Positions 37,670 to 50,520 of a DNA stretch of 64,000 bases are shown one piece after another. The translations under genes were made by a program, and so were the position numbers. The DNA is from Candidatus Taylorbacteria bacterium RIFCSPHIGHO2_12_FULL_45_16 (GTDB lineage: Bacteria > Patescibacteriota > Minisyncoccia > Phycocordibacterales > PALSA-1337). Location of the stretch: positions 43,533-107,532 of the forward strand of contig MHRT01000005.1 in assembly GCA_001821055.1 (NCBI GenBank), in the 5' to 3' direction. Position 1 is the stretch's first letter, and the number at the start of each line of letters is the position of its first letter. The notes beneath the pieces were generated by a model, which saw nothing but the letters and a program-made list of their open reading frames with translations, was not told the DNA's origin and did not search any database.

Positions 37670-39604
37670 TTACCACCCGACAGGAGGTCGCCATTTGAAC
37701 CGATAGAATCGTTTCGAAGGATCCGTAATGACTACTGGGACCCATGTCAGCCGGTTGTTTCCGACTGCGATGTTTTCTTGGGTTGTGGTCCAAGTCGACA
37801 TATCTGTCGTTGCCAAAAGATCATAAGATGTTCCTGGAATCCCGCGCACACCTATCCAGTTTGTGCTTCCCAATTGCCCCGGTGGGGCGGTGTTCGGGGG
37901 TGCTGACAAAAAACTTTCGTCAACGGAATAACTTGTGGAAGGGCAGGAGCCGTATGGCCCAATCGCCGAAGGATAAACTTCTGGCCCAGATACTGGCCAC
38001 CAGTAAGCATTGGTATTGCCAGTGACTCTTTCGACGAAGAATGACTCTCCGCAAGCGAAGGTCGGCATGTCTGGAGCCCAAACATAGTTTGTCACATACC
38101 CAGTTCCTCCATCACCAATTGGAGGTATGTCACCAGCGTTGGTTGAGATGTTCACGCTATTGGTAGCGGTATAGGTGACCCACCCGCTGCTGTATTTGTG
38201 GATTTTGTCACCGATTCTGGCTGGAAACCCGGCTCCTGAACTTGACTTTGAAAACGGGAAAGACAGGATATTGTGACCGGAAGGACAATAAACAGTCAGT
38301 CCTCCAGCCAGCACTTGACCAGAGAATGTTACCTGGATGGCGTTGGCAGATGGATTGTAGAACAACCCCCCTTCCCCAGGGAGGAGAGCAATTGATTCAT
38401 CTGTCCAAGAAGTCCCGTCGAAGGAGTTGGTCACCCAAACCCCGTCGCCGTTGTCATACTTGGCAATATAGGTACTGGTGGCCGCGCCCTTGAAAATTGA
38501 GCCGACTCTTGGATCCCAAGGATCCAGTTGGTTGGCAACGAGACGCACCCCTTGGGCTGGTATGGTACATGTGTACCAACCAAATGTCGCGGAATAATCG
38601 TTGTTATCGATCCTCCTCACTCTGAAGAACAGATTGGTCCGACCATCAGGGTTGAAGTTTATTGTCTGAACGCCAATAGATGTTCCCGAGAAATTGTTGC
38701 CTTCAGTCTCCCAATTTCCGGTATCCAGACTTGTTCGTGATTCCAAAACCCCGCTGATTCCGTTACTGATACCAATGACCATAAGTTCGACGGATCCTTG
38801 GAAAGTCGCTCCAATGCCTCGAGGCAAATCTGCGTTCGGGACAAGGGTGATGTTCCTCATCTGCGTTCCGACAGTTTGCCTGTAGAAGGCGTCGGTGGCA
38901 GACCATCCAGAACTTCCGTTGTTGTGTATTGTCCACGATACTTTCGTGGCATTGGATCTCATCATCCCTCCTGGAGCGTTACTCCCGAATTGATAGAATG
39001 TGAATGCTACCCAGTTCGTCTCTGGGGCTACAGCCAAGGGCTGATAGAATATTGTCAGTTTTGACCCCTCAACGAGGTTATTGGTGCCTGACAACAGGCT
39101 GTCCATGTTCTTGAATGTTCTTGTCCCGTCTGGGTTTTCAGACATTCCGTGCCATGGACCGGCATTTGGTAGAAAGTTTCCCGCCGCCCAACTAATCGGG
39201 GGGATAGGATTGTCATCTCCAACGATTGTTCTGTTTTTGTCACCCGTTTTCCAGGTAAACAATTTGAGTCCTTGACCTTTGAGTTCAGTACCGATAGGAC
39301 CAATACCAAACCGTATTCCACCAGTTGGCGGAGAAAAACTGATTGCTGGGCTGTCTAGGAAGAAGAAGTTCGGCGGGAGAGGTCCAATGACCGGTGGCGG
39401 GGACATTCCCCACGGTGAGAAGTCAAGGGTATTGGTCTTCCCATCCCTGTTGGTCACTACGGTTGGTGGTACCACCGGTGGCATGTTGGACTTGACTATG
39501 TAGTATACTCCCACAAAGTTCGTCACTCCACTCGCTGTCTGCGGGGAAAAGGTACCCATCCAGACAATCACGGATGTCACCAATATTGCTATAGTTCTGT
39601 TCAT
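37670..39604 (-). CDS. Large secreted hypothetical protein (signal peptide, rich in Gly/Pro/Trp/Asn)
   Basis: N-terminal signal-like MNRTIAILVTSVIVWMGTFSPQTASG. 644 aa. No recognised catalytic motif. Confidence 0.5.
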   Translation of the reverse strand: MNRTIAILVTSVIVWMGTFSPQTASGVTNFVGVYYIVKSNMPPVVPPTVVTNRDGKTNTLDFSPWGMSPPPVIGPLPPNFFFLDSPAISFSPPTGGIRFGIGPIGTELKGQGLKLFTWKTGDKNRTIVGDDNPIPPISWAAGNFLPNAGPWHGMSENPDGTRTFKNMDSLLSGTNNLVEGSKLTIFYQPLAVAPETNWVAFTFYQFGSNAPGGMMRSNATKVSWTIHNNGSSGWSATDAFYRQTVGTQMRNITLVPNADLPRGIGATFQGSVELMVIGISNGISGVLESRTSLDTGNWETEGNNFSGTSIGVQTINFNPDGRTNLFFRVRRIDNNDYSATFGWYTCTIPAQGVRLVANQLDPWDPRVGSIFKGAATSTYIAKYDNGDGVWVTNSFDGTSWTDESIALLPGEGGLFYNPSANAIQVTFSGQVLAGGLTVYCPSGHNILSFPFSKSSSGAGFPARIGDKIHKYSSGWVTYTATNSVNISTNAGDIPPIGDGGTGYVTNYVWAPDMPTFACGESFFVERVTGNTNAYWWPVSGPEVYPSAIGPYGSCPSTSYSVDESFLSAPPNTAPPGQLGSTNWIGVRGIPGTSYDLLATTDMSTWTTTQENIAVGNNRLTWVPVVITDPSKRFYRFKWRPPVGW

Positions 39605-40379
39605 ACTTGTCTTGCCTGTTTCTGTTGACCTTCTGGTCTTCTTTGTTTTTTATCCCTATGATCATTGTCTTCACTGCCTGGGATATTCTGCAGTGATAAG
39701 ACTGGTTTGGACCCAATCTTTGACAAATAACATTATGATCCTGTCGGGTCATAATCTGAATAACACCCTAACAACAAGTAATAATAATGTCAACATTTGA
39801 CATTATTATTTGTTTATGCTAGCATATGGAACAGTTTAGTCACCCAAGCAAAACGTTTGGGCGTGAAATTTAGTTTTGGTTACAAAGTTATGAGAAATAT
39901 GACATCAGCACATCAAGGTCATCGCGGACATTGGGTCAGGCGCCGCCACTCGTCCCAAAGGGAGAGGACGAATCCAAAGGTTATCCTCTTCATTGTGGGG
40001 TGCATCATCGTCGCGGCCCTGATCTACCAGCTTGCTCAAGCGGTTGAGCAGCTCAAGATCATGAATGAGTTGAGTTCGGGTGGAGGCTCAATTCGTTTCT
40101 AATTGGGACCCAACAACTCCACCAGCCGTCACTCGCGCCTCCATTGTGGGGCGCGTTTTTATTGGACCTAGGTCTCAACTTCAGCAAAACTTTATCGCTT
40201 CTTCAGCGTTTCTTTATCGCTCTTTGATATGGTGTGTCCATTATTAGTAATTATATAACAATATGAATACACACAAAGTCTCATTTAGAAGGATTGCCTA
40301 TCCGCCAAAGATTCGTTCAGTTGCAAAATTTCATTACAAACGCATATCAAAGCACGCATTGAAAGCATATATACCTCGT

Positions 40380-40841
40380 ATGGTTCGATCAGCCGGATTT
40401 ACGCTTATTGAGATTCTAGTCGTCATCGGTATCATCGCCATACTTGCTGCCGTAGTCTTGGTCGCGGTCAATCCGTCTCGCCAATTCAAGCTTGCTCGTG
40501 ATTCGCAAAGAACCAGTAATGTCAATGCCATCTTAAATGCCATACATCAAAATATATCAGAGCACAAAGGAAGTTTCGTCTGCAATGGCGTCGTCAGGGC
40601 AATACCCTCAGTCGCCACTCTCATGGAAAGCAGCGATACGCCCGATGATCCGAAAGATGTCGCGTCATGCCTAGTGCCTGATTATCTTTCCGCGCTTCCG
40701 TTTGATCCTTCCATTGTCGGTGCCCATTTTGTCAGCATCACGGATTACAACACGGGTTATGAGTTCTTCCGTGATGACAATGGGCGTATTACAGCAAGTT
40801 CGACTGGTGAATTAATTCCGACCATATCGGTGACGAGGTGA
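40380..40841 (+). CDS. Type IV pilin-like protein (prepilin-type N-terminal cleavage/methylation domain)
   Basis: RSAGFTLIEILVVIGIIAILAAVVLVAV is a class III signal peptide (G|FTLIE). Start placed at the internal ATG. Confidence 0.7.
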   Translation: MVRSAGFTLIEILVVIGIIAILAAVVLVAVNPSRQFKLARDSQRTSNVNAILNAIHQNISEHKGSFVCNGVVRAIPSVATLMESSDTPDDPKDVASCLVPDYLSALPFDPSIVGAHFVSITDYNTGYEFFRDDNGRITASSTGELIPTISVTR

Positions 40842-40865: not shown

Positions 40866-41897
40866 ATGCATATCAAACATCACTTCTTGCTTCTTGTATG
40901 TGGATGTCTCGCGCTTGTCGGCATATCCGCTTTGATGGTCCAGCAGACTGATCCCGGACCTGAATCGGAGATATTGACGCCGGCGACCGTGGCTGGTGTG
41001 GATGTTCCACAAGTTGATGCGGCATTTATCGATGGTTTGATCGAGACCGTGCCCAAAATGCCGGCAAAGATTGCAAGTGACGACATCGCCGGATTGACGG
41101 CCAGAGCCTACCTTGTAGGAAATATAAAAACGGGAAAAATTTATCTAGAAAAAAATAGCTCGCGCGTATTGCCGGTCGCTTCAATGTCAAAGCTCGTCAC
41201 AGCGTTTGTGGCGACAGATATGATGAGTTCAACGACGGTGATCGCCATATCGACGAGTACATTGGTGGTACCGCCGGATTCTAGCAATCTCACGTTGAAT
41301 GAGCGCTTTACTTTGCAGGAAATACTCCAACCACTTTTGTTGAGCTCGTCTAACATCGCCGCGGAAGCGATCGCAACCGCCACAGACCGCGTGACATTCA
41401 TGGAGATGATGAGTAGTTATGCCTGGGAAGTCGGCATGCCGCAAAGTTTCTTTGCTGATCCTTCTGGTGTCAGTCCAAACAATACAGCTTCGGCACGGGA
41501 TTTATTCGGACTATCAAAATATCTTGTCATGTATCGGTCTGATATTTTGAGAATAACGCGTACGGCCGTTGCTTCGATTTCTACCACCACCGAACATGGT
41601 GGCCACACATTCACTAGCACACACCCATTCGTCAATGATCCACGATTTATCGGTGGCAAAACGGGTCGTACCGAAGAAGCCGGTGAAACCATGATGACGA
41701 TACTTAACATCGGCAATGAACCAATAGTATTCATAATCTTGGGATCAAGATACGGTGCGCGTGAAAGCGATACGCGGATTTTAATTAAAGAATTTGAAAA
41801 GCACCTCTATTCCGCGAGCCAGCTTCTGATGAGCGTTTTTGTTTCTTCCGGATTTTTGACTGAAATACAATCGACACCAGTTGCTTTGGCCGGGTAG
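40866..41897 (+). CDS. D-alanyl-D-alanine carboxypeptidase (S11, PBP5-like)
   Basis: SxxK (SMSK), SxN (SSSN) and KTG (GGKTGRT) motifs. N-terminal TM/signal segment. The 3' end overlaps a convergent gene by about 90 nt, so the true stop may be earlier. Confidence 0.75.
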   Translation: MHIKHHFLLLVCGCLALVGISALMVQQTDPGPESEILTPATVAGVDVPQVDAAFIDGLIETVPKMPAKIASDDIAGLTARAYLVGNIKTGKIYLEKNSSRVLPVASMSKLVTAFVATDMMSSTTVIAISTSTLVVPPDSSNLTLNERFTLQEILQPLLLSSSNIAAEAIATATDRVTFMEMMSSYAWEVGMPQSFFADPSGVSPNNTASARDLFGLSKYLVMYRSDILRITRTAVASISTTTEHGGHTFTSTHPFVNDPRFIGGKTGRTEEAGETMMTILNIGNEPIVFIILGSRYGARESDTRILIKEFEKHLYSASQLLMSVFVSSGFLTEIQSTPVALAG

Positions 41898-42562
41898 TCG
41901 TTCCCTCCAGGAAAAAGCGCGTCGCCGACAAAGACGATATCGTCGGGGGTCATGTGTAGGAATTCTTCCAGTTTGCGAATACCATAAGCTTTATTGACCC
42001 CTTTTTTGGTGATGTCAATGGATGTGCTTCCGCCGACGCGCACGTCAAATTCCGGTATCTTGGGCTGTAAAAATGAGACAATATTTTCCCGTTTTTTTCT
42101 CGTAGGATCCCAGGCGACTTTTTCTGCAATGGGCGCTTGCTGACCTAACGCGGAAAAGGTGATTTGTGAGCCGCGGTCCTCAATGATTGTTCCGTAGACT
42201 CTGGTCGGTTGGATATAGTCGGCTTGTTTGAGAGCCGAGTTGAGTGATGTCATGATTTTTTCTTTTTCTTTTGGCGAGAGGTGTTCGGCGTATTGTTCAT
42301 TCCATGTTCCGCGCCATGTGTACAGACGAGTGCCGGATGTGGGCACGAGAAACAAATTGCTGAAGTTGTTCTCCCCGACGGGAAACGCGTTCAATATCTG
42401 CGTTTGAAATTGCGGATAGCCTCCACCTGAAATGATGGCGACTTTCTTGATGGCGATAAGTTTCTGTAGAAGTTTGCCGATTTCAGGATCAAGCGGACAC
42501 TTGCTTCTTCCCAGAGTGCCGTCAAGGTCAAAGATTATTAGTTTTTTGGAATATGCTACCAT
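41807..42562 (-). CDS. HAD-IIB family sugar-phosphate phosphatase (Cof / mannosyl-3-phosphoglycerate phosphatase-like)
   Basis: Motif I IIFDLDGTL. HAD-IIB cap and C-terminal GD motif. Confidence 0.65.
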   Translation of the reverse strand: MVAYSKKLIIFDLDGTLGRSKCPLDPEIGKLLQKLIAIKKVAIISGGGYPQFQTQILNAFPVGENNFSNLFLVPTSGTRLYTWRGTWNEQYAEHLSPKEKEKIMTSLNSALKQADYIQPTRVYGTIIEDRGSQITFSALGQQAPIAEKVAWDPTRKKRENIVSFLQPKIPEFDVRVGGSTSIDITKKGVNKAYGIRKLEEFLHMTPDDIVFVGDALFPGGNDYPAKATGVDCISVKNPEETKTLIRSWLAE

Positions 42563-42580
42563 TGCAGATAAGTCTTTATG

Positions 42581-44467
42581 CTAAATCTTAAGCATGGCCA
42601 ATAATTCAACAAGCTTGATGGTAGCGACGCCAACCACGCTGTCGGCGCCTCCATAATAAATGTATACGACGCCTCCTCGCACAACCAGACCACACGGAAA
42701 AACCACATTTTGGATACTGCCGAGACGTTCATAGTCTTCTTCTGGTTCAAAAAAGGGGATTGCCGTGCGCGCCAAAACTATCGTCGGATCCTCAAAATCA
42801 AGAAGTATGGCTCCGACGCGATATATTGCGCTCCACGAGACGCCATGATACAGCATAAGCCAGCCCTTTGGGGTTCTTACCGGCGGTGTCGAGATACCAA
42901 CCTTGAGGCCATCCCACATGCCCTTGCGTGGTGATAACATTTCTATACAGCGCGTGATTTTTTCTCGTGAGAAGTCCAACGAAGCGATAAAATCCGCGCA
43001 AATACTTTCGTGTACCCTATGGAAGACAAGATATTTTTCGTTGACGGCCTCGGGGAGAATGGTGGCGTCTTTATTGTCCACATCCATGGGCGTGATAATC
43101 TCTGGCGCTCTCCAAGCGCTCCATTTTTTCTTGAGGAATTCATCGCTACCGATGGAGGTTACCGCTACGCGTGGCACTATACCGTCATACGCGGTATATG
43201 TCATGAAAATACGTCTATCAATGAGTATGACGCGTGGATCTTCACAGCCGCGAAGCTCAAACTCAAGACGAGGCCGGTAGATTGGTTTGTTTGATCGTTC
43301 GTCTATGCTAAATCCGTCGCTTGATGACGCGTATCCAATACTCGAAATATTGTCATCTGATACCGCACGATATAAAATGTGAGTTTTATTTCCTAAATCT
43401 ATGGCGGCGGGATTGAATGTGCCTCTAGCTTCCCAAAGGACACCAGCTCTAGGGGCGATGATTGGATTGCCTTTAAAGCGGCGCAGTGGAGACTGATTAT
43501 TCATATTGATATTGAGGCCATTCAATAAAGAATCAAGTGGGATGGTTGCGACGGCGCCATAGGAATCCGCGGCACCATAATAAATTTCAAGGTGTTCACC
43601 ACGGATGAGCGCGCCTGAAGGGAATATTGTGTGTGGCACCTGTCCGACATGTTCATAATACGCTTCGGGCACCATGAAAGGGCCTTTCGTACTCCCGATG
43701 ATTTTTTTTGGATCTTGCGCGTCAAGTAATAGCGTTTCAATGCCGAAAACATGGTCTGGCCGGTCATATCGTTGTATATGAGAATAGACAAAGAGCCATC
43801 CTTTATCTGTCTTTACTGGCACGGCACCCAATTCAATATGATCATCAAGGCGTCTGCGGATATTCAGTTTGTGCTCGTCAAGATTTTTGTACCATTCATT
43901 CCAATAATCGGCCGACCAGATATCTTCCGGCTTATTGAATTCAATGAAGCAAATGTCGGAAGGTTTGCGGTCGGTATTTACGGTGACGAGTGCGGCAAGC
44001 TTGCCATTTATTTTTTCCGGGAAAAGAGCCATAGCTTTGGCGTTGAACGGCGTGACCAAGTGTTTCTCCGTGATAGTCTTCAAGTCCTCACTCAGAGCAA
44101 CGGCAACTTTTATGTTGTCAACTGAAAACGGATATCCACCAAGTCCGGTATAGAAAATGTAATAGGTCTTGCCGATTTTGGTTACGCGCGGATCTTCACA
44201 GCCGTAACGATCAAAATCCGCGTCGGGAGAAATCAAGATTGAGCGATTTTCATAGTGGACGCCGTCTTTTGAATCGGCTCGCGCGATGACGGACATGCGT
44301 ATGTGCGGCTCTTTGAGAAGTTCCGGGTCCGACATGGCCCGATATACAAGCGTAGTTTTGCGTCCTTGAATAATCGGACAAGGATTGAAAGCGGCCGCCG
44401 ATTCCCATGAATGTTCTCGGAGCGGAGAGAGTATCGGATTATGTAGGAAGCGGGTGACTGTAAACAT
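42581..44467 (-). CDS. Tandem-domain GH130 (DUF377) glycoside phosphorylase/hydrolase-like protein
   Basis: Two repeats of the GH130 signature (NPILSP...ESAAAFNPCPI...LVYRA and NPIIAPRAGVLWEARGTFNPAAI...ILYRA). GCEDPRV motifs in both halves. Confidence 0.75.
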   Translation of the reverse strand: MFTVTRFLHNPILSPLREHSWESAAAFNPCPIIQGRKTTLVYRAMSDPELLKEPHIRMSVIARADSKDGVHYENRSILISPDADFDRYGCEDPRVTKIGKTYYIFYTGLGGYPFSVDNIKVAVALSEDLKTITEKHLVTPFNAKAMALFPEKINGKLAALVTVNTDRKPSDICFIEFNKPEDIWSADYWNEWYKNLDEHKLNIRRRLDDHIELGAVPVKTDKGWLFVYSHIQRYDRPDHVFGIETLLLDAQDPKKIIGSTKGPFMVPEAYYEHVGQVPHTIFPSGALIRGEHLEIYYGAADSYGAVATIPLDSLLNGLNINMNNQSPLRRFKGNPIIAPRAGVLWEARGTFNPAAIDLGNKTHILYRAVSDDNISSIGYASSSDGFSIDERSNKPIYRPRLEFELRGCEDPRVILIDRRIFMTYTAYDGIVPRVAVTSIGSDEFLKKKWSAWRAPEIITPMDVDNKDATILPEAVNEKYLVFHRVHESICADFIASLDFSREKITRCIEMLSPRKGMWDGLKVGISTPPVRTPKGWLMLYHGVSWSAIYRVGAILLDFEDPTIVLARTAIPFFEPEEDYERLGSIQNVVFPCGLVVRGGVVYIYYGGADSVVGVATIKLVELLAMLKI

Positions 44468-44479
44468 CGAAATAGTATA

Positions 44480-45634
44480 TCACACGACATTTTCTTGACC
44501 GGTATGTTTGCCGTATGTCACCAACCAATCCAACAAAACATCAAGTGGAGTTTGTGCTATGCAGACATGCCTATCGCCACCGCCGTAATAGACGAGCAAT
44601 TGGCCGTCGCGTACGATGGCGCCAGATGCATAAACAATGCCCGGTTTGCCATCGTTCTCATAGCACATGTCCGGAGTCAGTATCGGTTCCGGCGCGCGAT
44701 ACAAGATTCGCGTCGGGTCGTTGGCATCCAAGATCATCGCGCCAAGTTTGTATTTGTGAAATTCTTTTCTATCCACTGCGTGATACAAAAGCAACCAACC
44801 TCGGTTGGTTTTTATCGGCGGTGGACCGGCACCACGCAAGATATTATCCCAAAATCCTTCACGGCCGGGTTGAGGCCCTTGCGGACGGGAGCTCTTGATG
44901 TGAGGAAATGTCTCATCCAAATCGTCCACGTATTCAATCATTATTTTCGGAACAATACCATGCAATATGGCGTATTTACCATTGACTTTTTCTGGAAAAA
45001 GTACCCAGTTTTTGTGGACTTCGTCGGGAGGCGATATGAGTCTAGGCTTCTTCCAATTCCACCGCTCTTTTTTCAAATCTTTGACGGCGATTGAGGTAAG
45101 TCCGATGCGTACCGAACCCCAGCCTTGGAAAGCGGTATAAGTCATGTAAACGCGACTGCCGATTTTCACGGCACGAGGATCTTCGTGGCCACCCCAGCCG
45201 CCGCCGGATGTGTATATGGCGGGATTGTATTGAGCGGGACCTGAAGATTTTTTTTCAGAGGGATTTTTTTCTTCAACATGTGGCTGATATACTGGGAAAG
45301 GCGAACGCCTATCAAAGTTCATGCCGTCTATGCTTGAGGCGTGTCCGATATTAGAAAGTCCGTTGTTTCCGATTGCCCGATACAGCAGATGAACGCGTCC
45401 CTCATCGTCTTCTATCGCCGTCGGATTGAATGTGCCGTTGGTTTCCCATTCTTGATGTGGTCGCGGTGACATTATGGGATTCGCGTGGTGGCGTTTTATC
45501 TTATGACTAACAGGAGCGTCGCCTTCCTCCCGTTTTTTTCTTAACAAAATAAGATAACAGACAATTCCGATGACGATTACTATCGCAAGAGACAGTGCGG
45601 TGACAAATATGATGTGGTCAGTTGTAATGTTCAT
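44480..45634 (-). CDS. GH130 (DUF377) beta-mannoside phosphorylase-like protein with an N-terminal TM anchor
   Basis: TM helix followed by NPIMSP...GTFNPTAI...LLYRA, and HEDPRAV. Confidence 0.75.
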   Translation of the reverse strand: MNITTDHIIFVTALSLAIVIVIGIVCYLILLRKKREEGDAPVSHKIKRHHANPIMSPRPHQEWETNGTFNPTAIEDDEGRVHLLYRAIGNNGLSNIGHASSIDGMNFDRRSPFPVYQPHVEEKNPSEKKSSGPAQYNPAIYTSGGGWGGHEDPRAVKIGSRVYMTYTAFQGWGSVRIGLTSIAVKDLKKERWNWKKPRLISPPDEVHKNWVLFPEKVNGKYAILHGIVPKIMIEYVDDLDETFPHIKSSRPQGPQPGREGFWDNILRGAGPPPIKTNRGWLLLYHAVDRKEFHKYKLGAMILDANDPTRILYRAPEPILTPDMCYENDGKPGIVYASGAIVRDGQLLVYYGGGDRHVCIAQTPLDVLLDWLVTYGKHTGQENVV

Positions 45635-45666
45635 TGGTGTTCTGCGTAAAAATATTTAAGACAAAT

Positions 45667-46020
45667 TTAAGTGATTCTACCGTACTTGTCTTCCAGTCTT
45701 ATTATGTCTTTCTCGTCAAATTCTCCGAATGACAGTTCGAGGATGATCAACTCCATCACGCCACCCATAAGACGATGGTTTATTCCTTTTGGCACAAATT
45801 GATCCACTCCGGCTTTGAGCGATACGTGATCATTGTCAACGATGGCGGTGCCGTCGCCTGAGATAACATGCCAGAACTCATCGCGATTACGATGATACTG
45901 CAAACTCAATTCTTCGTGGGGTTTGATACTCAAGATTTTCACCATTGACGGTCTGTCGTTGGAAACCCAAAGTTCCTCTCCCCATGGTCGCTCTTCGCGA
46001 TATGGTTTAGGGGTTTGCAT
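45667..46020 (-). CDS. Cupin-domain protein (mannose-6-phosphate isomerase type II C-terminal domain-like)
   Basis: Cupin motifs (HEELSLQYHRNRDEFWHVISG...VPKGINHR). Confidence 0.6.
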   Translation of the reverse strand: MQTPKPYREERPWGEELWVSNDRPSMVKILSIKPHEELSLQYHRNRDEFWHVISGDGTAIVDNDHVSLKAGVDQFVPKGINHRLMGGVMELIILELSFGEFDEKDIIRLEDKYGRIT

Positions 46021-46418
46021 GGCTTTATGTACACCTCATTATACTACAAATATGGGCCTTTAAATTGGTGTTTTATATGTGTATAACTTTTGCGGCTTAT
46101 TTTAAGCATTTTTTGATATAATGGGCACATGGAAACAGTGGTTCTAATAATTATAGTTTTTGCGATTCTTTTTTACAGTTCTCGTCCGAAATCAGATAAA
46201 AAAGAAGTCGGTAAAGGCGATAGAAATAAGGAGGTGAAACGATAAGATGAAGTTCGTATCTAATTTCTTGGCTCCGCGTTGCGAATGAAATATCTACCTA
46301 CTTTAAGACCACAAAGGAGTACCATTACATCTCAAATCTAAAGGATGGTATCTACGAACTTACTCGGCCGACAAGCGAGCAGTTAACAAGGGTTTAAGAG
46401 ATGTTGGCATCTGTCCAT

Positions 46419-46448
46419 TTGACATCCTATACCCCCTAGGGGTATCAT
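46419..46448 (+). promoter_or_regulatory. csoR-cop promoter (TTGACA-18-TATCAT) overlapping a near-perfect palindrome, ATACCCCCTAGGGGTAT (46429-46445), taken to be the CsoR operator
   Basis: Core CCCCTAGGGG is a perfect palindrome flanked by ATAC/GTAT. It resembles known GC-rich CsoR operators. ATG at 46455, 6 nt after the -10. Confidence 0.6.
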
Positions 46449-46454
46449 GTAGGC

Positions 46455-46721
46455 ATGAGACAATATATCAAAACAAAAGCTATTCGCCGATTAAAAATTG
46501 TTGAGGGACAAATTAGGGGACTTCAAAATATGGTTGAAGATGAGAAGTACTGTATCGATATTATTACCCAGGCATCTGCTATTAAAGAAGCCCTTACAGG
46601 AATTGAGAACTTGGTCCTTGAAAACCATCTTTCTACCCACGTAGTTCACCAGATGAAGCATGGAAGTGAAAAGAAAGCTGTTGATGAGATCCTTAAGGTT
46701 TATAAGCTAAAGCGTAAATAA
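46455..46721 (+). CDS. csoR: CsoR/RcnR-family copper-sensing transcriptional repressor
   Basis: RLKRIEGQIRGLQNMVEDEKYCIDIITQ...H...H pattern of the CsoR (DUF156) family. Confidence 0.8.
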   Translation: MRQYIKTKAIRRLKIVEGQIRGLQNMVEDEKYCIDIITQASAIKEALTGIENLVLENHLSTHVVHQMKHGSEKKAVDEILKVYKLKRK

Positions 46722-46724
46722 AAT

Positions 46725-49052
46725 ATGAATCATCCTACCAAAACCTACAGGGTAAAAGGAATGCACTGCGCTTCGTGCGCTGGTATAATTGAAAAAACTT
46801 TCAAGAAAACCGAGGGAGTCCACTCTGCTGAAGTAAACTATGGGACCGAAAAAGCAAAAGTAGCTTTTGATGAATCGAAAACAAGCGCACAGGAGCTTTC
46901 AAAAAAAATAGAACCATTGGGCTACTCCCTAGCCCTGAACCAGGAGACTTCACATGAACATGGTGGCCATTCAGCAGAGGAGATGGGTATGTCTGCAGAC
47001 GAGCATGCGACTCACCTCGGAATCGGTCAATCAAAGAAAGAGAAGCTTGCTGAAGTCGCTGATATGAAGACAAAGGTACTCTCTGCCATTCCTTTGGCAA
47101 TTTTCGCAGCACTAGTCATGGGATGGGACATTCTGGCTCAATATGGAGTTGTGGGAGAAATGAGTTATACGATCAAAGAATTTATTCACCATCTTTTGCC
47201 TATACTGGCGGCATACATACTCTTTGTTGTTGGAAAACCCTATCTCATGGGCTTCTACCGCTTTCTCCGCTATGGCAAGGCTAATATGGATACCCTCATA
47301 GGTATCGGAACTACTGCAGCATTTTTATACAGCTTTGCCGTTACCGCTTTTGAGGAAGCGCTTCGACCTTTTATAAATGTTGATTACCAATACTACGACG
47401 TTACCATCGTGGTGATCACCTTTATAGCACTCGGCAAATATCTTGAAGCGCGATCGAAAATAAAGACCGGAGATGCTATTGAAAAGCTTCTTAATCTCCA
47501 GGCTAAAACAGCACTTGTTGTTCGAGATGGAAAAGAAGTAGAAATTTCAGTGAATGAAGTAAAACATGGAGATCTCATTATTGTTAAGCCAGGAGCAAAG
47601 ATTCCAGTAGATGGAATTATTACCGAAGGATCCTCATTTATCGATGAGTCTATGATTACCGGAGAGCCGATGCCTGCACAAAAAAAGATCGGAGACAGTG
47701 TTGTGTCCGGAACAATCAACACTAGTGGCTCGTTTACATTTAAGGCAACCAAGGTCGGTTCAGAGACTCTTCTCGCTCAGATTATAAAAATGGTTGAGGA
47801 TGCCCAGGGTAGTAAAGCGCCAATTCAAGCACTGGCAGACAAGATTTCATCTATCTTCGTGCCTATCGTTCTGGTGATTGCATTTCTAACACTCGGAGCA
47901 TGGCTTATTATTGGGTCCCAGTATCTAGGCTTCTCTCAAGCGCTTTCATTTGGCCTCGTTTCTTTTGTAGGTATTCTCGTTATTGCTTGTCCATGCGCTC
48001 TCGGCCTCGCTACTCCAACAGCGATCATAGTAGGAGTTGGTAAGGGAGCCAAGGAAGGCATTCTCATCAAAGATGCAGCAACACTTGAAAAGCTTCATAA
48101 GGTAAATACGGTTGTGGTTGATAAGACGGGGACCATTACTAAAGGCAAGCCAACACTTGTAGATATTCAAAACCTTTCTGATTTAAAAGATGATGAACTT
48201 GTATCAGTACTTGCTTCGCTTGAGAAAAAATCAGAACATCCAATCGCACACGCAATTGTAAGCTACGCTAAGGAAAAGAATATCTCGGTATCAGAAGTGT
48301 CTAATTTTGAAGGTATTCAAGGTAAGGGTCTCAAGGGAACAATTAAGGGTGCTGAATATTTTGTTGGTAACGCAAAGCTTGTAAGTGATCTCGGACTTTC
48401 TTTTGATGTAGCCAAGCTCAATGAGTCTACTTCTCAGGGTAAAACGCCAGTCATTCTCGCTAGTAAAGAAAAGGTTCTTGGTTTTGTAATGGTGGCAGAT
48501 GAAATAAAAGCTGAATCAATAGAAGCGGTGAGAGATCTTCACGCACTGGGAATCAAAGTGATCATGCTCACCGGCGATGATGAAAAAGCGGCAAAATATA
48601 TCGCATCACTTGTCGGCATCGATGATGTGGTTGCTCATGTGCTGCCACAGGATAAGCTTGAAAAGATAAAAGAATTACAGTTACAAAGAAAGATCGTGGC
48701 TATGGCAGGAGATGGTGTGAACGACGCTCCTGCACTTGCACAAGCTGATGTGGGTATTGCCATGGGGACCGGAACTGATGTGGCGATTGAATCAGCAGGT
48801 ATTACGCTTCTTGGTGGAGATATTTCAAAGCTCGTCAAGGCAATCAAGCTATCGAAAATTACCATGCGTGGAATCAAGCAAAATCTTTTCTGGGCATTTA
48901 TTTACAACATATTCGGCATACCTCTTGCAGCTGGAGTTTTCTATCCTATTTCTGGATGGTTACTTAATCCTGTATTTGCTGGTTTTGCCATGGCCATGTC
49001 GTCGGTGTCAGTCGTATCGAACTCGCTTCGCATCAAAGGTAAAAAACTATAA
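46725..49052 (+). CDS. copA: Copper-translocating P1B-type ATPase
   Basis: N-terminal HMA GMHCASCAG. TM CPC motif (CPCALGLATP). DKTGTIT phosphorylation site. GDGVNDAPAL motif. Confidence 0.9.
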   Translation: MNHPTKTYRVKGMHCASCAGIIEKTFKKTEGVHSAEVNYGTEKAKVAFDESKTSAQELSKKIEPLGYSLALNQETSHEHGGHSAEEMGMSADEHATHLGIGQSKKEKLAEVADMKTKVLSAIPLAIFAALVMGWDILAQYGVVGEMSYTIKEFIHHLLPILAAYILFVVGKPYLMGFYRFLRYGKANMDTLIGIGTTAAFLYSFAVTAFEEALRPFINVDYQYYDVTIVVITFIALGKYLEARSKIKTGDAIEKLLNLQAKTALVVRDGKEVEISVNEVKHGDLIIVKPGAKIPVDGIITEGSSFIDESMITGEPMPAQKKIGDSVVSGTINTSGSFTFKATKVGSETLLAQIIKMVEDAQGSKAPIQALADKISSIFVPIVLVIAFLTLGAWLIIGSQYLGFSQALSFGLVSFVGILVIACPCALGLATPTAIIVGVGKGAKEGILIKDAATLEKLHKVNTVVVDKTGTITKGKPTLVDIQNLSDLKDDELVSVLASLEKKSEHPIAHAIVSYAKEKNISVSEVSNFEGIQGKGLKGTIKGAEYFVGNAKLVSDLGLSFDVAKLNESTSQGKTPVILASKEKVLGFVMVADEIKAESIEAVRDLHALGIKVIMLTGDDEKAAKYIASLVGIDDVVAHVLPQDKLEKIKELQLQRKIVAMAGDGVNDAPALAQADVGIAMGTGTDVAIESAGITLLGGDISKLVKAIKLSKITMRGIKQNLFWAFIYNIFGIPLAAGVFYPISGWLLNPVFAGFAMAMSSVSVVSNSLRIKGKKL

Positions 49053-49069
49053 TCAACAAGACCAACAAT

Positions 49070-50104
49070 ATGAATCCACAAACTCTTAAAACATATACAT
49101 TCCACGTCCACGGCATGCACTGCAACGCCTGCGTCCTTATGATCGAAAGCGAGCTAGGTGATCTACCGAATATTACTCATGTTAAATCAAGCCTCAAGAA
49201 TCACTCGGCAGAGGTCACCGGAGACTTTGGCGATAAGACCCTGGAGCAGATCGCGGAAGAGCTTACTATTCCGCTGAAGTCACACGGTTACACTGTTTCA
49301 GTTGAAAAACAGCAGCACAATGCCACATGGGGAGACTTCAAGATCGCTGTCCCGATAGCGCTCGGCTTCGCAGTACTCTTTGTAGTACTACAGAAAATGG
49401 GGATCGTGAATCTCGTCAGTGCCGGTAATGTCACCTACGGCACAGCGTTCGTCATTGGCATCATTGCCTCGCTCTCAACGTGCATGGCAGTTGTCGGTGG
49501 ACTGGTCCTTTCCATGTCTGCCACCTTCGCCAAAGAAGGGGATAAGGTACGGCCTCAACTCATGTTCCATGGCGGCCGAATAGTCTCATTCTTTATTCTT
49601 GGAGGCGTTATCGGGACGATCGGTGCCGCATTCACGCTCAACACTTCTGCAACGTTTATCTTGAGCCTGATTATCGGTATCGTCATGCTCATTCTCGGTA
49701 TCAATCTTCTTGACACCTTCCATTGGGCCAAGAAGCTTCAGCCATCAATGCCGAAGTTCATCGCCAAGCATGCTCACGGTGTCTCAAAATTCAATCACAC
49801 ACTTACGCCGATCCTTGTCGGTGTCGCCACTTTTTTCTTGCCGTGCGGATTCACTCAATCAATGCAACTCTATACGTTAACCACAGGAAGTTTCCTTCAA
49901 GGCGGACTCACCATGCTTGCATTTGCACTTGGCACACTACCGGTTCTTGCTCTGATTAGCTTCAGCTCATTCAGCATCCAAAAGAGCTCAAAGGCAGGGA
50001 TCTTCTTCAAGACGGCCGGACTGATCGTCATCATGTTTGCGCTGTTTAATCTTGTCAATAGCTTGGTGGTGATCGGTGTCATACCGCCGCTGTTCAACTT
50101 CTAG
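49070..50104 (+). CDS. HMA (heavy-metal-associated) domain fused to a multi-TM domain (DsbD_2/CcdA-like, Cys within a TM segment)
   Basis: GMHCNACV HMA motif. About six hydrophobic helices. FFLPCGFTQ. Confidence 0.55.
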   Translation: MNPQTLKTYTFHVHGMHCNACVLMIESELGDLPNITHVKSSLKNHSAEVTGDFGDKTLEQIAEELTIPLKSHGYTVSVEKQQHNATWGDFKIAVPIALGFAVLFVVLQKMGIVNLVSAGNVTYGTAFVIGIIASLSTCMAVVGGLVLSMSATFAKEGDKVRPQLMFHGGRIVSFFILGGVIGTIGAAFTLNTSATFILSLIIGIVMLILGINLLDTFHWAKKLQPSMPKFIAKHAHGVSKFNHTLTPILVGVATFFLPCGFTQSMQLYTLTTGSFLQGGLTMLAFALGTLPVLALISFSSFSIQKSSKAGIFFKTAGLIVIMFALFNLVNSLVVIGVIPPLFNF

Positions 50105-50130
50105 TATACTGTTAATCACGTCCTGTAATT

Positions 50131-50520
50131 ATGAAAGCAACTATTATTTCAATTGTCGTGGCAGTGATCCTCATCGGAGGGGCTTTTGTGCTGGCCCGGG
50201 GCGGAGACAATGATGCTTCGACTGTTCCGACAAATAACGTCACGATCGTTGATGGAAAACAGATTATAGAAATCAATGCCAAAGGCGGCTATCAGCCAAG
50301 AAAAAGTATTGCCAAGGCAGGTATCCCTACAATTATTCGATTCAACACAAAGGGAACTTTTGATTGTTCATCCTCAGTTCGTATTCCGAGCTTGAATATA
50401 AGTAAGCTGCTGCCTCAATCAGGAGCAACTGATATAGACATTGGTAGCGGTCAGCTCGGCACGCTCCAGGGATCATGCGGGATGGGGATGTATCCGTTCG
50501 AGGTGGAGTTTCAGAGTTAG
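50131..50520 (+). CDS. Membrane-anchored cupredoxin-like domain protein (putative copper-binding partner encoded directly downstream of the cop ATPase operon)
   Basis: N-terminal TM. Beta-rich domain with FDCSSS...GSCGMGMYPFE. Tight operon spacing. Confidence 0.4.
   Translation: MKATIISIVVAVILIGGAFVLARGGDNDASTVPTNNVTIVDGKQIIEINAKGGYQPRKSIAKAGIPTIIRFNTKGTFDCSSSVRIPSLNISKLLPQSGATDIDIGSGQLGTLQGSCGMGMYPFEVEFQS

Follow-up and report, generated by a model that had tools for sequence, protein, structure and literature searches.

We describe a cluster of four genes in a 64,000-nucleotide stretch of DNA, hereafter the window, from the genome of Candidatus Taylorbacteria bacterium RIFCSPHIGHO2_12_FULL_45_16 (NCBI assembly GCA_001821055.1, contig MHRT01000005.1, positions 43,533 to 107,532). 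All four are intact, co-oriented open reading frames (ORFs) on the minus strand, and they encode a cupin (45667-46020, 117 aa), a GH130 protein with an N-terminal transmembrane helix that we call TM-GH130 (44480-45634, 384 aa), a tandem fusion of two GH130 domains (42581-44467, 628 aa) and a HAD-IIB protein (41807-42562, 251 aa). The gaps between them are 32 bp (cupin to TM-GH130), 12 bp (TM-GH130 to fusion) and 18 bp (fusion to HAD). Four tightly spaced genes with one orientation and these coordinates had been reported in the original prediction, which was made from the sequence alone, and the ORF listing of the window agrees with it.

Bacteria of the Candidate Phyla Radiation (CPR), or Patescibacteria, are abundant, almost uncultured and thought to be minimal in carbohydrate metabolism; they are scavenging episymbionts with reduced genomes. 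The window is typical of the group. It contains genes for FtsZ/FtsA, DnaG, RpoD, aminoacyl-tRNA synthetases, MreB, a type IV pilin and six tRNAs, and almost no metabolic genes, a housekeeping content consistent with the "metabolically reduced genome" suggested earlier. NCBI assembly GCA_001821115.1 (contig MHRZ01000001.1) and a 320-kb contig from the Joint Genome Institute contain the identical sequence, and the nearest relatives are labelled Taylorbacteria, Parcubacteria or Paceibacterota.

Results

Domains were called with the curated profile models of Pfam and NCBIfam. All calls lie well above the curated cut-offs, and the scores of the four proteins exceed them by so much that chance is ruled out. 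The fusion matches PF04041 (Glyco_hydro_130) with 338 bits in two stretches and TM-GH130 matches it with 146 bits (cut-off 26), which places both in GH130/DUF377, as had been proposed. An AlphaFold model of the 628-aa fusion consists of two beta-propeller halves (mean pLDDT 83, pTM 0.70). Each half superposes on the Thermoanaerobacter sp. X-514 enzymes Teth514_1788/1789, with a target-normalised TM-score of 0.88-0.90 and a root-mean-square deviation of 2.0-2.3 Å, and so matches the five-bladed beta-propeller fold of structures 9FJ8 and 7FIP. No PDB chain spans both halves. Profile and model together bear out the head-to-tail fusion of two complete GH130 domains that had been read from the sequence. 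The closest solved structures to TM-GH130 are again 9FJ8 (E 4.7e-47) and 7FIP.

The two Teth514 enzymes, which belong to subfamily GH130_6, are the best sequence and fold matches of all three GH130 domains in the window (34-39% identity). They have in common with them the Glu/Lys pair of beta-1,2 enzymes and the absence of a signal peptide, and their short L2 loop recurs in the C-terminal domain of the fusion and in TM-GH130. They differ in being two separate single-domain proteins, whereas here there is a fusion partner deficient in the phosphate site and a paralogue anchored in the membrane.

The active sites were compared by residue rules taken from PMC7660257, PMC4599007 and PMC12814180 and expressed in UhgbMP numbering. 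Each domain was aligned to Teth514_1788/1789, and the columns were scored in 78 orthologues of the fusion and 62 of TM-GH130 from species-representative genomes. In UhgbMP the proton donor is D104 and the phosphate ligands are R168 and H231 (Li et al. 2020, PMC7660257); the +1-subsite pair Y103/R150 of UhgbMP becomes Glu/Lys in beta-1,2 enzymes (PMC7660257, PMC4599007). The sugar-site columns scored were, in this numbering, the equivalents of R59, E103, D104, K150 and D304, and Uhgb_MS residues K184, R202 and R242 map onto the scored columns. The donor Asp is present in every orthologue (D92 and D410 of the fusion, 78/78; D152 of TM-GH130, 62/62), and the beta-1,2 Glu/Lys pair is likewise invariant (E91/K144, E409/K466 and E151/K208). 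The Arg/His phosphate pair, which had been named as the residue check for each GH130 domain, gave a divided answer: the C-terminal domain of the fusion has the full set, and the N-terminal domain and TM-GH130 do not.

The C-terminal domain (42584-43501, minus strand; residues 323-628) carries a complete, canonical beta-1,2-mannoside phosphorylase signature, and is the only one of the three domains that resembles a normal phosphorylase. R367, E409, D410, K466, H483, R484, H541, Y549 and D609 are kept in 78/78 orthologues, R484, H541 and Y549 being the equivalents of R168, H231 and Y242. At the position of Uhgb_MS R242 the domain has K522, which is Lys in 75 orthologues and Arg in 3. Every catalytic and phosphate residue of the Teth514 enzymes is present, the identity to these enzymes is 39%, and the score on the beta-1,2-mannobiose phosphorylase model NF052550 is 244 bits.

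In the N-terminal domain (43502-44467, minus strand; residues 1-322) the sugar site is intact, with R43, E91, D92, K144 and D301 kept in 78/78 orthologues, but the pocket for phosphate has been rebuilt. MAFFT places opposite R168 a residue that is Thr in 64 orthologues, Ser in 10, Ala in 2 and Gly in 2, and Arg in none of the 78; in an alternative HMMER register an Arg, R167, falls on this position and is kept in just 36/78. The H231 equivalent is Ser (70), Ala (5) or Cys (3) and never His; the Y242 equivalent is Phe (75) or Trp (3) and never Tyr. The equivalent of Uhgb_MS R242 is H/Q210 in a gap-free register and E212 in the MAFFT register. E212, which lies two residues beyond position 210 on the same strand, is invariant, as is D166, and both lie near the lost phosphate ligands. 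An insertion of about 16 residues at loop L2 is modelled as a strand and helices (180-199).

Loss of the Arg/His pair together with gain of a carboxylate marks GH130 hydrolases (PMC7660257, PMC4599007), and in GH130_3 a carboxylate base, E227 of BT3780, occupies the phosphate site. The N-terminal domain shows the residues from which a GH130 hydrolase would be predicted, and can in this respect be compared with the GH130_3 beta-1,2-mannosidases (BT3780, BACOVA_03624): a donor Asp, the Glu/Lys pair, no Arg/His pair, and acidic residues near the phosphate site. It differs from them in three respects. By sequence it is nearer to the phosphorylases (170 bits on NF052550 versus only 86 bits on NF058598, the BT3780 model); it is cytoplasmic and has no signal peptide, whereas the GH130_3 enzymes often carry one; and its L2 loop is long and inserted, while that of known GH130 hydrolases is short. 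Most probably the domain accompanies the phosphorylase domain in a non-phosphorolytic role, as a predicted hydrolase-like or a transglycosylating enzyme. A long L2 loop without a phosphate site should leave "only hydrolysis", and no such enzyme had been described (PMC12814180). With its long loop, its missing phosphate site and its Glu, the N-terminal domain presents the combination that the same paper calls never yet observed.

We also considered that the N-terminal domain might be a decaying pseudo-domain. This was rejected, because it is as conserved as the C-terminal domain (mean identity 0.62 versus 0.63) and its replacement residues are invariant.

A search of the full library with the N-terminal domain recovered the same N-type signature (FNAKAM, no HR, H-I/L-E-V/L, YS/C, FG/T) in other arrangements: by itself in proteins of about 325 aa, as the latter half of a tandem with reversed domain order, and within a 971-aa triple-GH130 protein. 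In these cases too the N-type domains lie in or beside proteins with canonical phosphorylase-type domains. That the two types turn up together again and again suggests that they work as partners, and their occurrence in either order, with the N-type as a separate gene or within a triple-domain protein, points to an obligatory partnership.

Larger GH130 arrays were seen in other lineages (L086, 2808-5648; L087, 939-5949; P0121, P0122, P0130 and P0133). One of them consists of a 612-aa tandem GH130 followed by a stand-alone N-type GH130; another has two tandem GH130 genes in succession, the domain order being reversed in one of them, beside a processive-type GT2 gene. The 971-aa protein contains three GH130 catalytic motifs and a 1029-aa match contains two. 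The GT2 and BacA genes that neighbour these arrays suggest a link to glycan synthesis.

TM-GH130 departs from the canonical pattern at a single position. R86, E151, D152, K208 and Y295 (the Y242 equivalent) are invariant in its 62 orthologues, D354 is kept in 61/62, and H285, the His of the phosphate pair, in 60/62. The Arg of the pair (UhgbMP R168, Uhgb_MS R202) is replaced: its equivalent, where neither MAFFT nor HMMER introduces a gap, is Ser in 33 orthologues, Gly in 17, Ala in 6, Thr in 3 and Arg in 2. At the Uhgb_MS R242 position stands R267 (Arg in 54, Lys in 6). All that TM-GH130 lacks is the "switch" Arg, a residue at the foot of loop L2 and one of four phosphate contacts. For comparison, changing R202 of Uhgb_MS to Ala lowers phosphorylase activity 16-fold (PMC12814180). 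The pattern suggests a weak phosphorylase or a transferase-leaning enzyme at the membrane.

The transmembrane helix of TM-GH130 (45542-45613, minus strand; residues 8-31) reaches a Kyte-Doolittle mean of 3.07 over 19 residues, has no basic residue on its N-terminal flank and is followed directly by RKKR. A helix is present in 58/62 orthologues despite divergence of its sequence, and the C-terminal flank carries an excess of Lys and Arg in 58/58. Hydropathy and conservation thus support the N-terminal membrane anchor that had been noticed on this protein; the other three proteins of the operon have no hydrophobic N-terminus. Because the basic residues flank the helix C-terminally, the positive-inside rule predicts an N-out/C-in orientation, in which the helix holds a cytoplasmic catalytic domain at the inner membrane face. 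By the same rule, and on the same charge distribution, a secreted or surface-exposed TM-GH130 was rejected.

TM-GH130 also has an insertion of about 23 residues (residues ~119-148) just before the catalytic motif, which is variable and ends in a conserved SGGGWGG-x-EDPR. The insertion sits where GH130_4 enzymes bear a lid that limits chain length, and may influence the form of the plus subsites.

A neighbour-joining tree of 25 species separates the domains into three monophyletic clades (N-type, C-type and TM-type) and places the C-type as sister group of the Teth514 enzymes. Domains of one type have a mean identity of 0.58-0.63 and domains of different types one of 0.32-0.38, values that imply similar constraint on all three types. 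The three domains are old paralogues distinguished by their phosphate sites. One operon holds three natural active-site variants: one with a full phosphate site, one with a single Arg missing, and one with no phosphate site, a Glu and a long L2 loop.

The HAD protein scores 84.5 bits on TIGR01484 (HAD-IIB; cut-off 41.8) and 48.2 bits on PF03332, the phosphomannomutase (PMM) family (cut-off 22.4). All 17 of its PDB matches are phosphoglucomutase (PGM) or phosphomannomutases. The first is the alpha-phosphoglucomutase PgmH of Lactococcus lactis (4BND; E 5.3e-43, 35.5% identity over 245 aa), and PMM1 (28% identity), PMM2 (E ~1e-16 for both) and parasite PMMs follow. FDLDGTL, SGG, the cap elements EDR and SALGQ, K191 and the PMM-family motif GD..PGGND are kept in 58 orthologues. 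With PgmH, PMM1 and PMM2 the protein shares the PF03332 HAD-IIB fold family and the motifs DxDGT, EDR, SAxGQ and GD..PGGND, and its DxDGT nucleophile motif and GD..GGND motif IV place it in the PMM/alpha-PGM branch of HAD-IIB. By these family relationships it is a phosphohexomutase of the PMM/alpha-PGM (PgmH) type. PgmH is said to act on glucose phosphates in Leloir and glycolytic metabolism. The HAD gene, in contrast, lies in a mannoside operon, and from this context the protein is predicted to prefer mannose over glucose phosphates and to interconvert mannose-1-phosphate (Man-1-P) and mannose-6-phosphate (Man-6-P).

The original prediction had taken the HAD protein for a phosphatase resembling mannosyl-3-phosphoglycerate phosphatase (MPGP), and had proposed that a phosphomannomutase be sought elsewhere in the genome. 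There is no MPGP model among the nine NCBIfam matches of the protein (E <= 0.01) and no MPGP among its PDB matches, and the trehalose-phosphate and sucrose-phosphate phosphatase models reach only 20-24 bits against cut-offs of 68-107; on these grounds the MPGP-like assignment was rejected. As the protein's nearest structures are 4BND and PMM1/PMM2, it would itself be the "missing" phosphomannomutase, already in the cluster. The implication for annotation is that this gene should be named a PMM/PGM-type mutase in these genomes, not a phosphatase.

The cupin scores 66.1 bits on PF01050, the C-terminal family of type II phosphomannose isomerase (PMI; cut-off 23.6), in accord with the PMI-type cupin of the first reading. 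It matches TIGR01479 (GMP_PMI) at model positions 361-467 only, which is the PMI half. Residues Q41, H43, E48 and H82, which we take from PMI and cupin motifs to be metal ligands, do not vary among 12 orthologues that were aligned, and their conservation among 61 is at least 95%. The orthologues keep RPWG, SLQxH..R.E.W, HR and a C-terminal FDE.DI.R.ED.YGR. There is no close solved structure for the cupin; the best profile match is 7ZVY/7ZVM (E ~1e-7). The protein corresponds to the C-terminal PMI domain of AlgA and ManC/XanB, with conserved motifs; these bifunctional enzymes also carry a guanylyltransferase domain, whereas the 117-aa cupin stands alone without it. It is probably a type II PMI, for which the predicted reaction is Man-6-P to fructose-6-phosphate (Fru-6-P) and back.

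The fusion has at least 120 cluster representatives with 66-100% identity over the full length, and all the named ones are Patescibacteria. Searches of species-representative genomes returned several hundred tandem GH130 matches with 51-82% identity, and a scan of one genome per GTDB species returned at least 556 confirmed stretches. Two search patterns lie in the same gene, and these stretches therefore correspond to at least a few hundred species. The supposed rarity of the domain-duplicated GH130 was rejected on these counts: the protein is a signature of Paceibacteria/Parcubacteria.

Synteny was counted in the best 80 loci of these stretches, one genome per GTDB species, with loci that have enough flank as denominators. 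TM-GH130 lies directly upstream of the fusion in 70/73 loci. The HAD mutase gene is present in 62/74 and adjacent in 55, the cupin gene is present in 62/73, and all four genes occur together in 54/69, the co-conservation among relatives that had been named as a check. Relatives at 68-81% identity preserve the order of the genes but have other upstream flanks. When all neighbouring ORFs within 8 kb on either side were clustered, no other family appeared in more than 31/80 loci; the families that reach this number are a D-Ala-D-Ala carboxypeptidase and a pilin, in closer relatives only. No transporter, binding protein, kinase or nucleotidyltransferase is co-conserved within the same distance in the 80 loci. 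Transporters, kinases and Man-1-P guanylyltransferase were considered as candidate partners, and none was found as a co-conserved gene in the 80 loci, in the window or in 20 kb of flank.

All of the 80 best loci are CPR apart from two records, L067 and L070, which come from metagenome-assembled genomes labelled Omnitrophota and Nanoarchaeota; many other loci are labelled "Saccharibacteria". The fusion proteins of these loci group among Paceibacteria sequences (53% identity), and the labels probably reflect binning or naming artefacts, not transfers. A membrane histidine kinase of about 523 aa (HisKA/HATPase_c) lies between the fusion and HAD genes in about 10 of the 80 loci (for example L004, 7891-9465, and L014, 9945-11516), which hints at regulated expression of the module.

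Discussion

We consider it probable that the four genes are one operon for a cytoplasmic, nucleotide-sugar-independent and fully reversible route between beta-1,2-mannosides and Fru-6-P, with a single genuine phosphorylase domain and two specialised paralogous domains. With the HAD protein as a mutase and the cupin as a PMI, the four genes spell one linear path. The C-terminal domain of the fusion would phosphorolyse beta-1,2-mannosides with inorganic phosphate to alpha-Man-1-P, the HAD mutase would convert this to Man-6-P, and the cupin would convert Man-6-P to Fru-6-P, feeding the fermentative or pentose-phosphate metabolism of the CPR host at no cost in ATP. The N-terminal domain and TM-GH130 would bind the same kind of sugar with altered nucleophile pockets, the former as the non-phosphorolytic (hydrolase-like or transglycosylating) partner of the C-terminal domain and the latter as a weak phosphorylase or transferase-leaning enzyme at the inner membrane face. 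What we observe is gene content, residue patterns, conservation and synteny; from these we predict all enzyme activities, the topology and the direction of the route.

The succession GH130, PMM, PMI, Fru-6-P is the established fate of Man-1-P (PMC4264767), and its logic is textbook for gut Bacteroides and Firmicutes. The general idea of the original prediction, salvage of mannosides or their synthesis by reverse phosphorolysis, stands, without its phosphatase partner, which is replaced by a mutase. Literature searches on GH130/DUF377 in Parcubacteria/Paceibacteria gave nothing beyond an inventory line for a Microgenomates genome, which lists two GH130 genes and a PMI (PMC7143001). Relative to the searched literature, what is new is the operon and its near-universal linkage in a large CPR class, the use of an HAD-type mutase (not one of the alpha-D-phosphohexomutase type) and a mini-cupin PMI as partners, and the two GH130 forms themselves, a fused N-type and an anchored one that lacks the Arg. 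Paceibacteria are one of the largest CPR classes, and a self-contained, ATP-free module between mannosides and Fru-6-P that a few hundred of their species conserve with high sequence identity amounts to a specific hypothesis of carbon entry or carbon buffering.

Several points weigh against this pathway. The equivalog cut-off of NF052550 is 450 bits, and all the GH130 proteins and domains fall short of it (the whole fusion reaches 409 when its two domains are added together, the C-terminal domain 244, TM-GH130 205 and the N-terminal domain 170). The alignment of the N-terminal domain around the Arg and Lys/Arg phosphate ligands depends on the register chosen (MAFFT or HMMER), and in this protein R167 could reach the phosphate site. 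Among characterised enzymes a phosphoglucomutase is nearest to the HAD protein, and the predicted preference for Man-1-P comes from operon context. That a type II cupin of 117 aa would act as a PMI on its own is extrapolated from bifunctional enzymes, and across all these clades the activities are predicted ones. Finally, neither the 64-kb window nor a further 20 kb of flanking sequence yielded a source of beta-1,2-mannosides, an importer, a mannokinase or a GDP-mannose enzyme.

All three steps are near equilibrium, and direction can therefore not be read from sequence; the degradative direction is the most likely one. In one version the operon serves salvage only: beta-1,2-manno-oligosaccharides from a host or the environment would be imported by a transporter encoded elsewhere and phosphorolysed at the membrane by TM-GH130 and in the cytosol by the fusion, an entry to glycolysis that requires no ATP. 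This is quite possible, although we hold it with less than even confidence. It suits scavenging episymbionts with reduced genomes and a window of housekeeping genes only, a membrane-tethered, cytoplasmic TM-GH130 could adjoin an importer, and every characterised bacterial GH130 pathway is of this kind (PMC4264767, PMC7660257). However, the 8 kb on either side of the module in 80 species contain neither an importer nor a binding protein that is conserved along with it, whereas the 12-gene cluster of Thermoanaerobacter includes a five-gene ATP-binding cassette (ABC) import system along with a GH5, a Man-1-P guanylyltransferase and a GT4 (PMC4264767). The partners here are a PMM-type mutase and a PMI, in place of a GDP-mannose branch. 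Salvage alone also sits poorly with a substrate that is rare in nature and a module that is widespread and strongly conserved, and it leaves the altered phosphate pocket in two of three domains unexplained.

A second explanation is an endogenous reserve cycle, a "bacterial mannogen", in which intracellular beta-1,2-mannan is built from Fru-6-P in times of plenty, by way of PMI, PMM and then reverse phosphorolysis and/or a transferase-leaning TM-GH130, and is phosphorolysed in starvation, like the Leishmania GT108 MTP array. We regard this as doubtful. It would explain the core-gene behaviour of the module, the missing transporter and the three-way specialisation of the GH130 domains. Every step can run both ways; the 80 loci show no co-conserved gene for a transporter, a binding protein or a secreted glycanase; and several hundred species from many habitats have the module as a core trait and conserve it highly, while beta-1,2-mannan is rare environmentally. 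The three paralogues are differentiated, one of them having the short L2 loop and three phosphate contacts of the transferase-leaning pattern in PMC12814180, and GH130 arrays adjoin GT2 genes in other lineages.

The mannogen of Leishmania provides the precedent (PMC10913872). There, as is predicted here, several paralogous five-bladed propellers with differing phosphate-site contacts act on beta-1,2-mannan (synthase versus phosphorylase), and both systems are cytoplasmic and linked to hexose phosphates through PMM and PMI. GT108 and GH130 are different families, however: all sequence matches of the proteins in the window are GH130, and MTP4 (6Q50) is a remote fold match only (E 4.6e-9, 15% identity, rank 37). 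The Leishmania synthases use GDP-mannose. Other observations run counter to a reserve cycle. Beta-1,2-mannan is unreported in CPR bacteria, neither the cluster nor the window contains a GDP-mannose pyrophosphorylase or a primer-forming enzyme, and all characterised bacterial GH130 systems are catabolic. The R202A change in Uhgb_MS abolished transferase activity and did not favour it (PMC12814180), and the switch-Arg position alone does not set glycosyltransferase versus glycoside phosphorylase activity (Franceus et al.). The fuller proposal that Paceibacteria store and consume intracellular beta-1,2-mannan with this module, sharing the work among TM-GH130 as synthase or primer, the cytosolic phosphorylase and the fused non-phosphorolytic GH130, which with its long L2 loop and the Glu in its phosphate pocket would be a GH130 type not described before, we consider unlikely. 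If a reserve polymer proved true, or new GH130 chemistry were confirmed, interest in the module would become high.

The altered phosphate pocket of a membrane-tethered, cytoplasm-facing TM-GH130 also invites the thought that Man-1-P made from Fru-6-P serves an envelope glycan, with TM-GH130 adding beta-1,2-mannose to a membrane lipid or lipoglycan acceptor at the cytoplasmic face and the fusion trimming or recycling the product. Beta-1,2- and beta-1,3-mannosyl residues do occur in bacterial polysaccharides (PMC12814180), and GT2 and BacA genes adjoin GH130 arrays in distant relatives. Yet among the genes conserved with the operon in the 80 Paceibacteria loci there is none for the envelope, be it a flippase, a polyprenyl-phosphate transferase or another, and a lipid acceptor or donor is not known for any GH130 enzyme; such a role of TM-GH130 is possible, unsupported by the neighbouring genes, and in our estimate improbable.

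Very improbable, and contradicted by the family assignment of the HAD protein, is the idea that an MPGP-like phosphatase here helps to make a mannosylated compatible solute or dephosphorylates Man-1-P or Man-6-P: HAD-IIB (TIGR01484) also houses MPGP and the sucrose-phosphate and trehalose-phosphate phosphatases, and the literature credits mammalian PMM1 with a bisphosphatase side activity, but beyond the profile and structure matches given above the GD..PGGND motif and the cap residues common to 4BND are conserved, and the cluster has no glycerate- or 3-phosphoglycerate-related synthase.

Flanking regions

Upstream of the cupin gene lies a 434-bp intergenic region (46021-46454, no strand assigned) that is the probable promoter region of the operon and separates it from a divergent copper module. 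On the minus strand a perfect TATAAT (46038-46043) precedes the cupin ATG by 17 nt, and GAGGTG occupies 46031-46036; a consensus scan for promoters and terminators gave nothing that exceeded the shuffled background. A 38-aa ORF within the region (46129-46245, plus strand), with a hydrophobic N-terminal half (METVVLIIIVFAILFYSS...), may encode a small membrane protein or be spurious.

The copper-homeostasis module (46455-50520, plus strand) consists of genes for a CsoR-like repressor (46455-46721), a CopA-type P-type ATPase with an HMA domain (46725-49052), a membrane protein with HMA and DsbD_2 domains (49070-50104) and a cupredoxin (50131-50520). It is found only in identical copies of the genome and is absent from relatives at 68-81% identity.

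On the other side of the operon, the HAD mutase gene and a convergent Peptidase_S11 (D-Ala-D-Ala carboxypeptidase) gene (40866-41897, plus strand) share 91 bp at their 3' ends (41807-41897), and the same overlap is present in public gene calls (locus L001). Farther along, a 644-aa ORF (37670-39604, minus strand) has no Pfam match, does not occur in more distant relatives and has a hydrophobic segment in its N-terminal part. It adjoins a type IV pilin-like gene (40263-40841, N_methyl motif), and its product may be a surface or pilus-associated protein.

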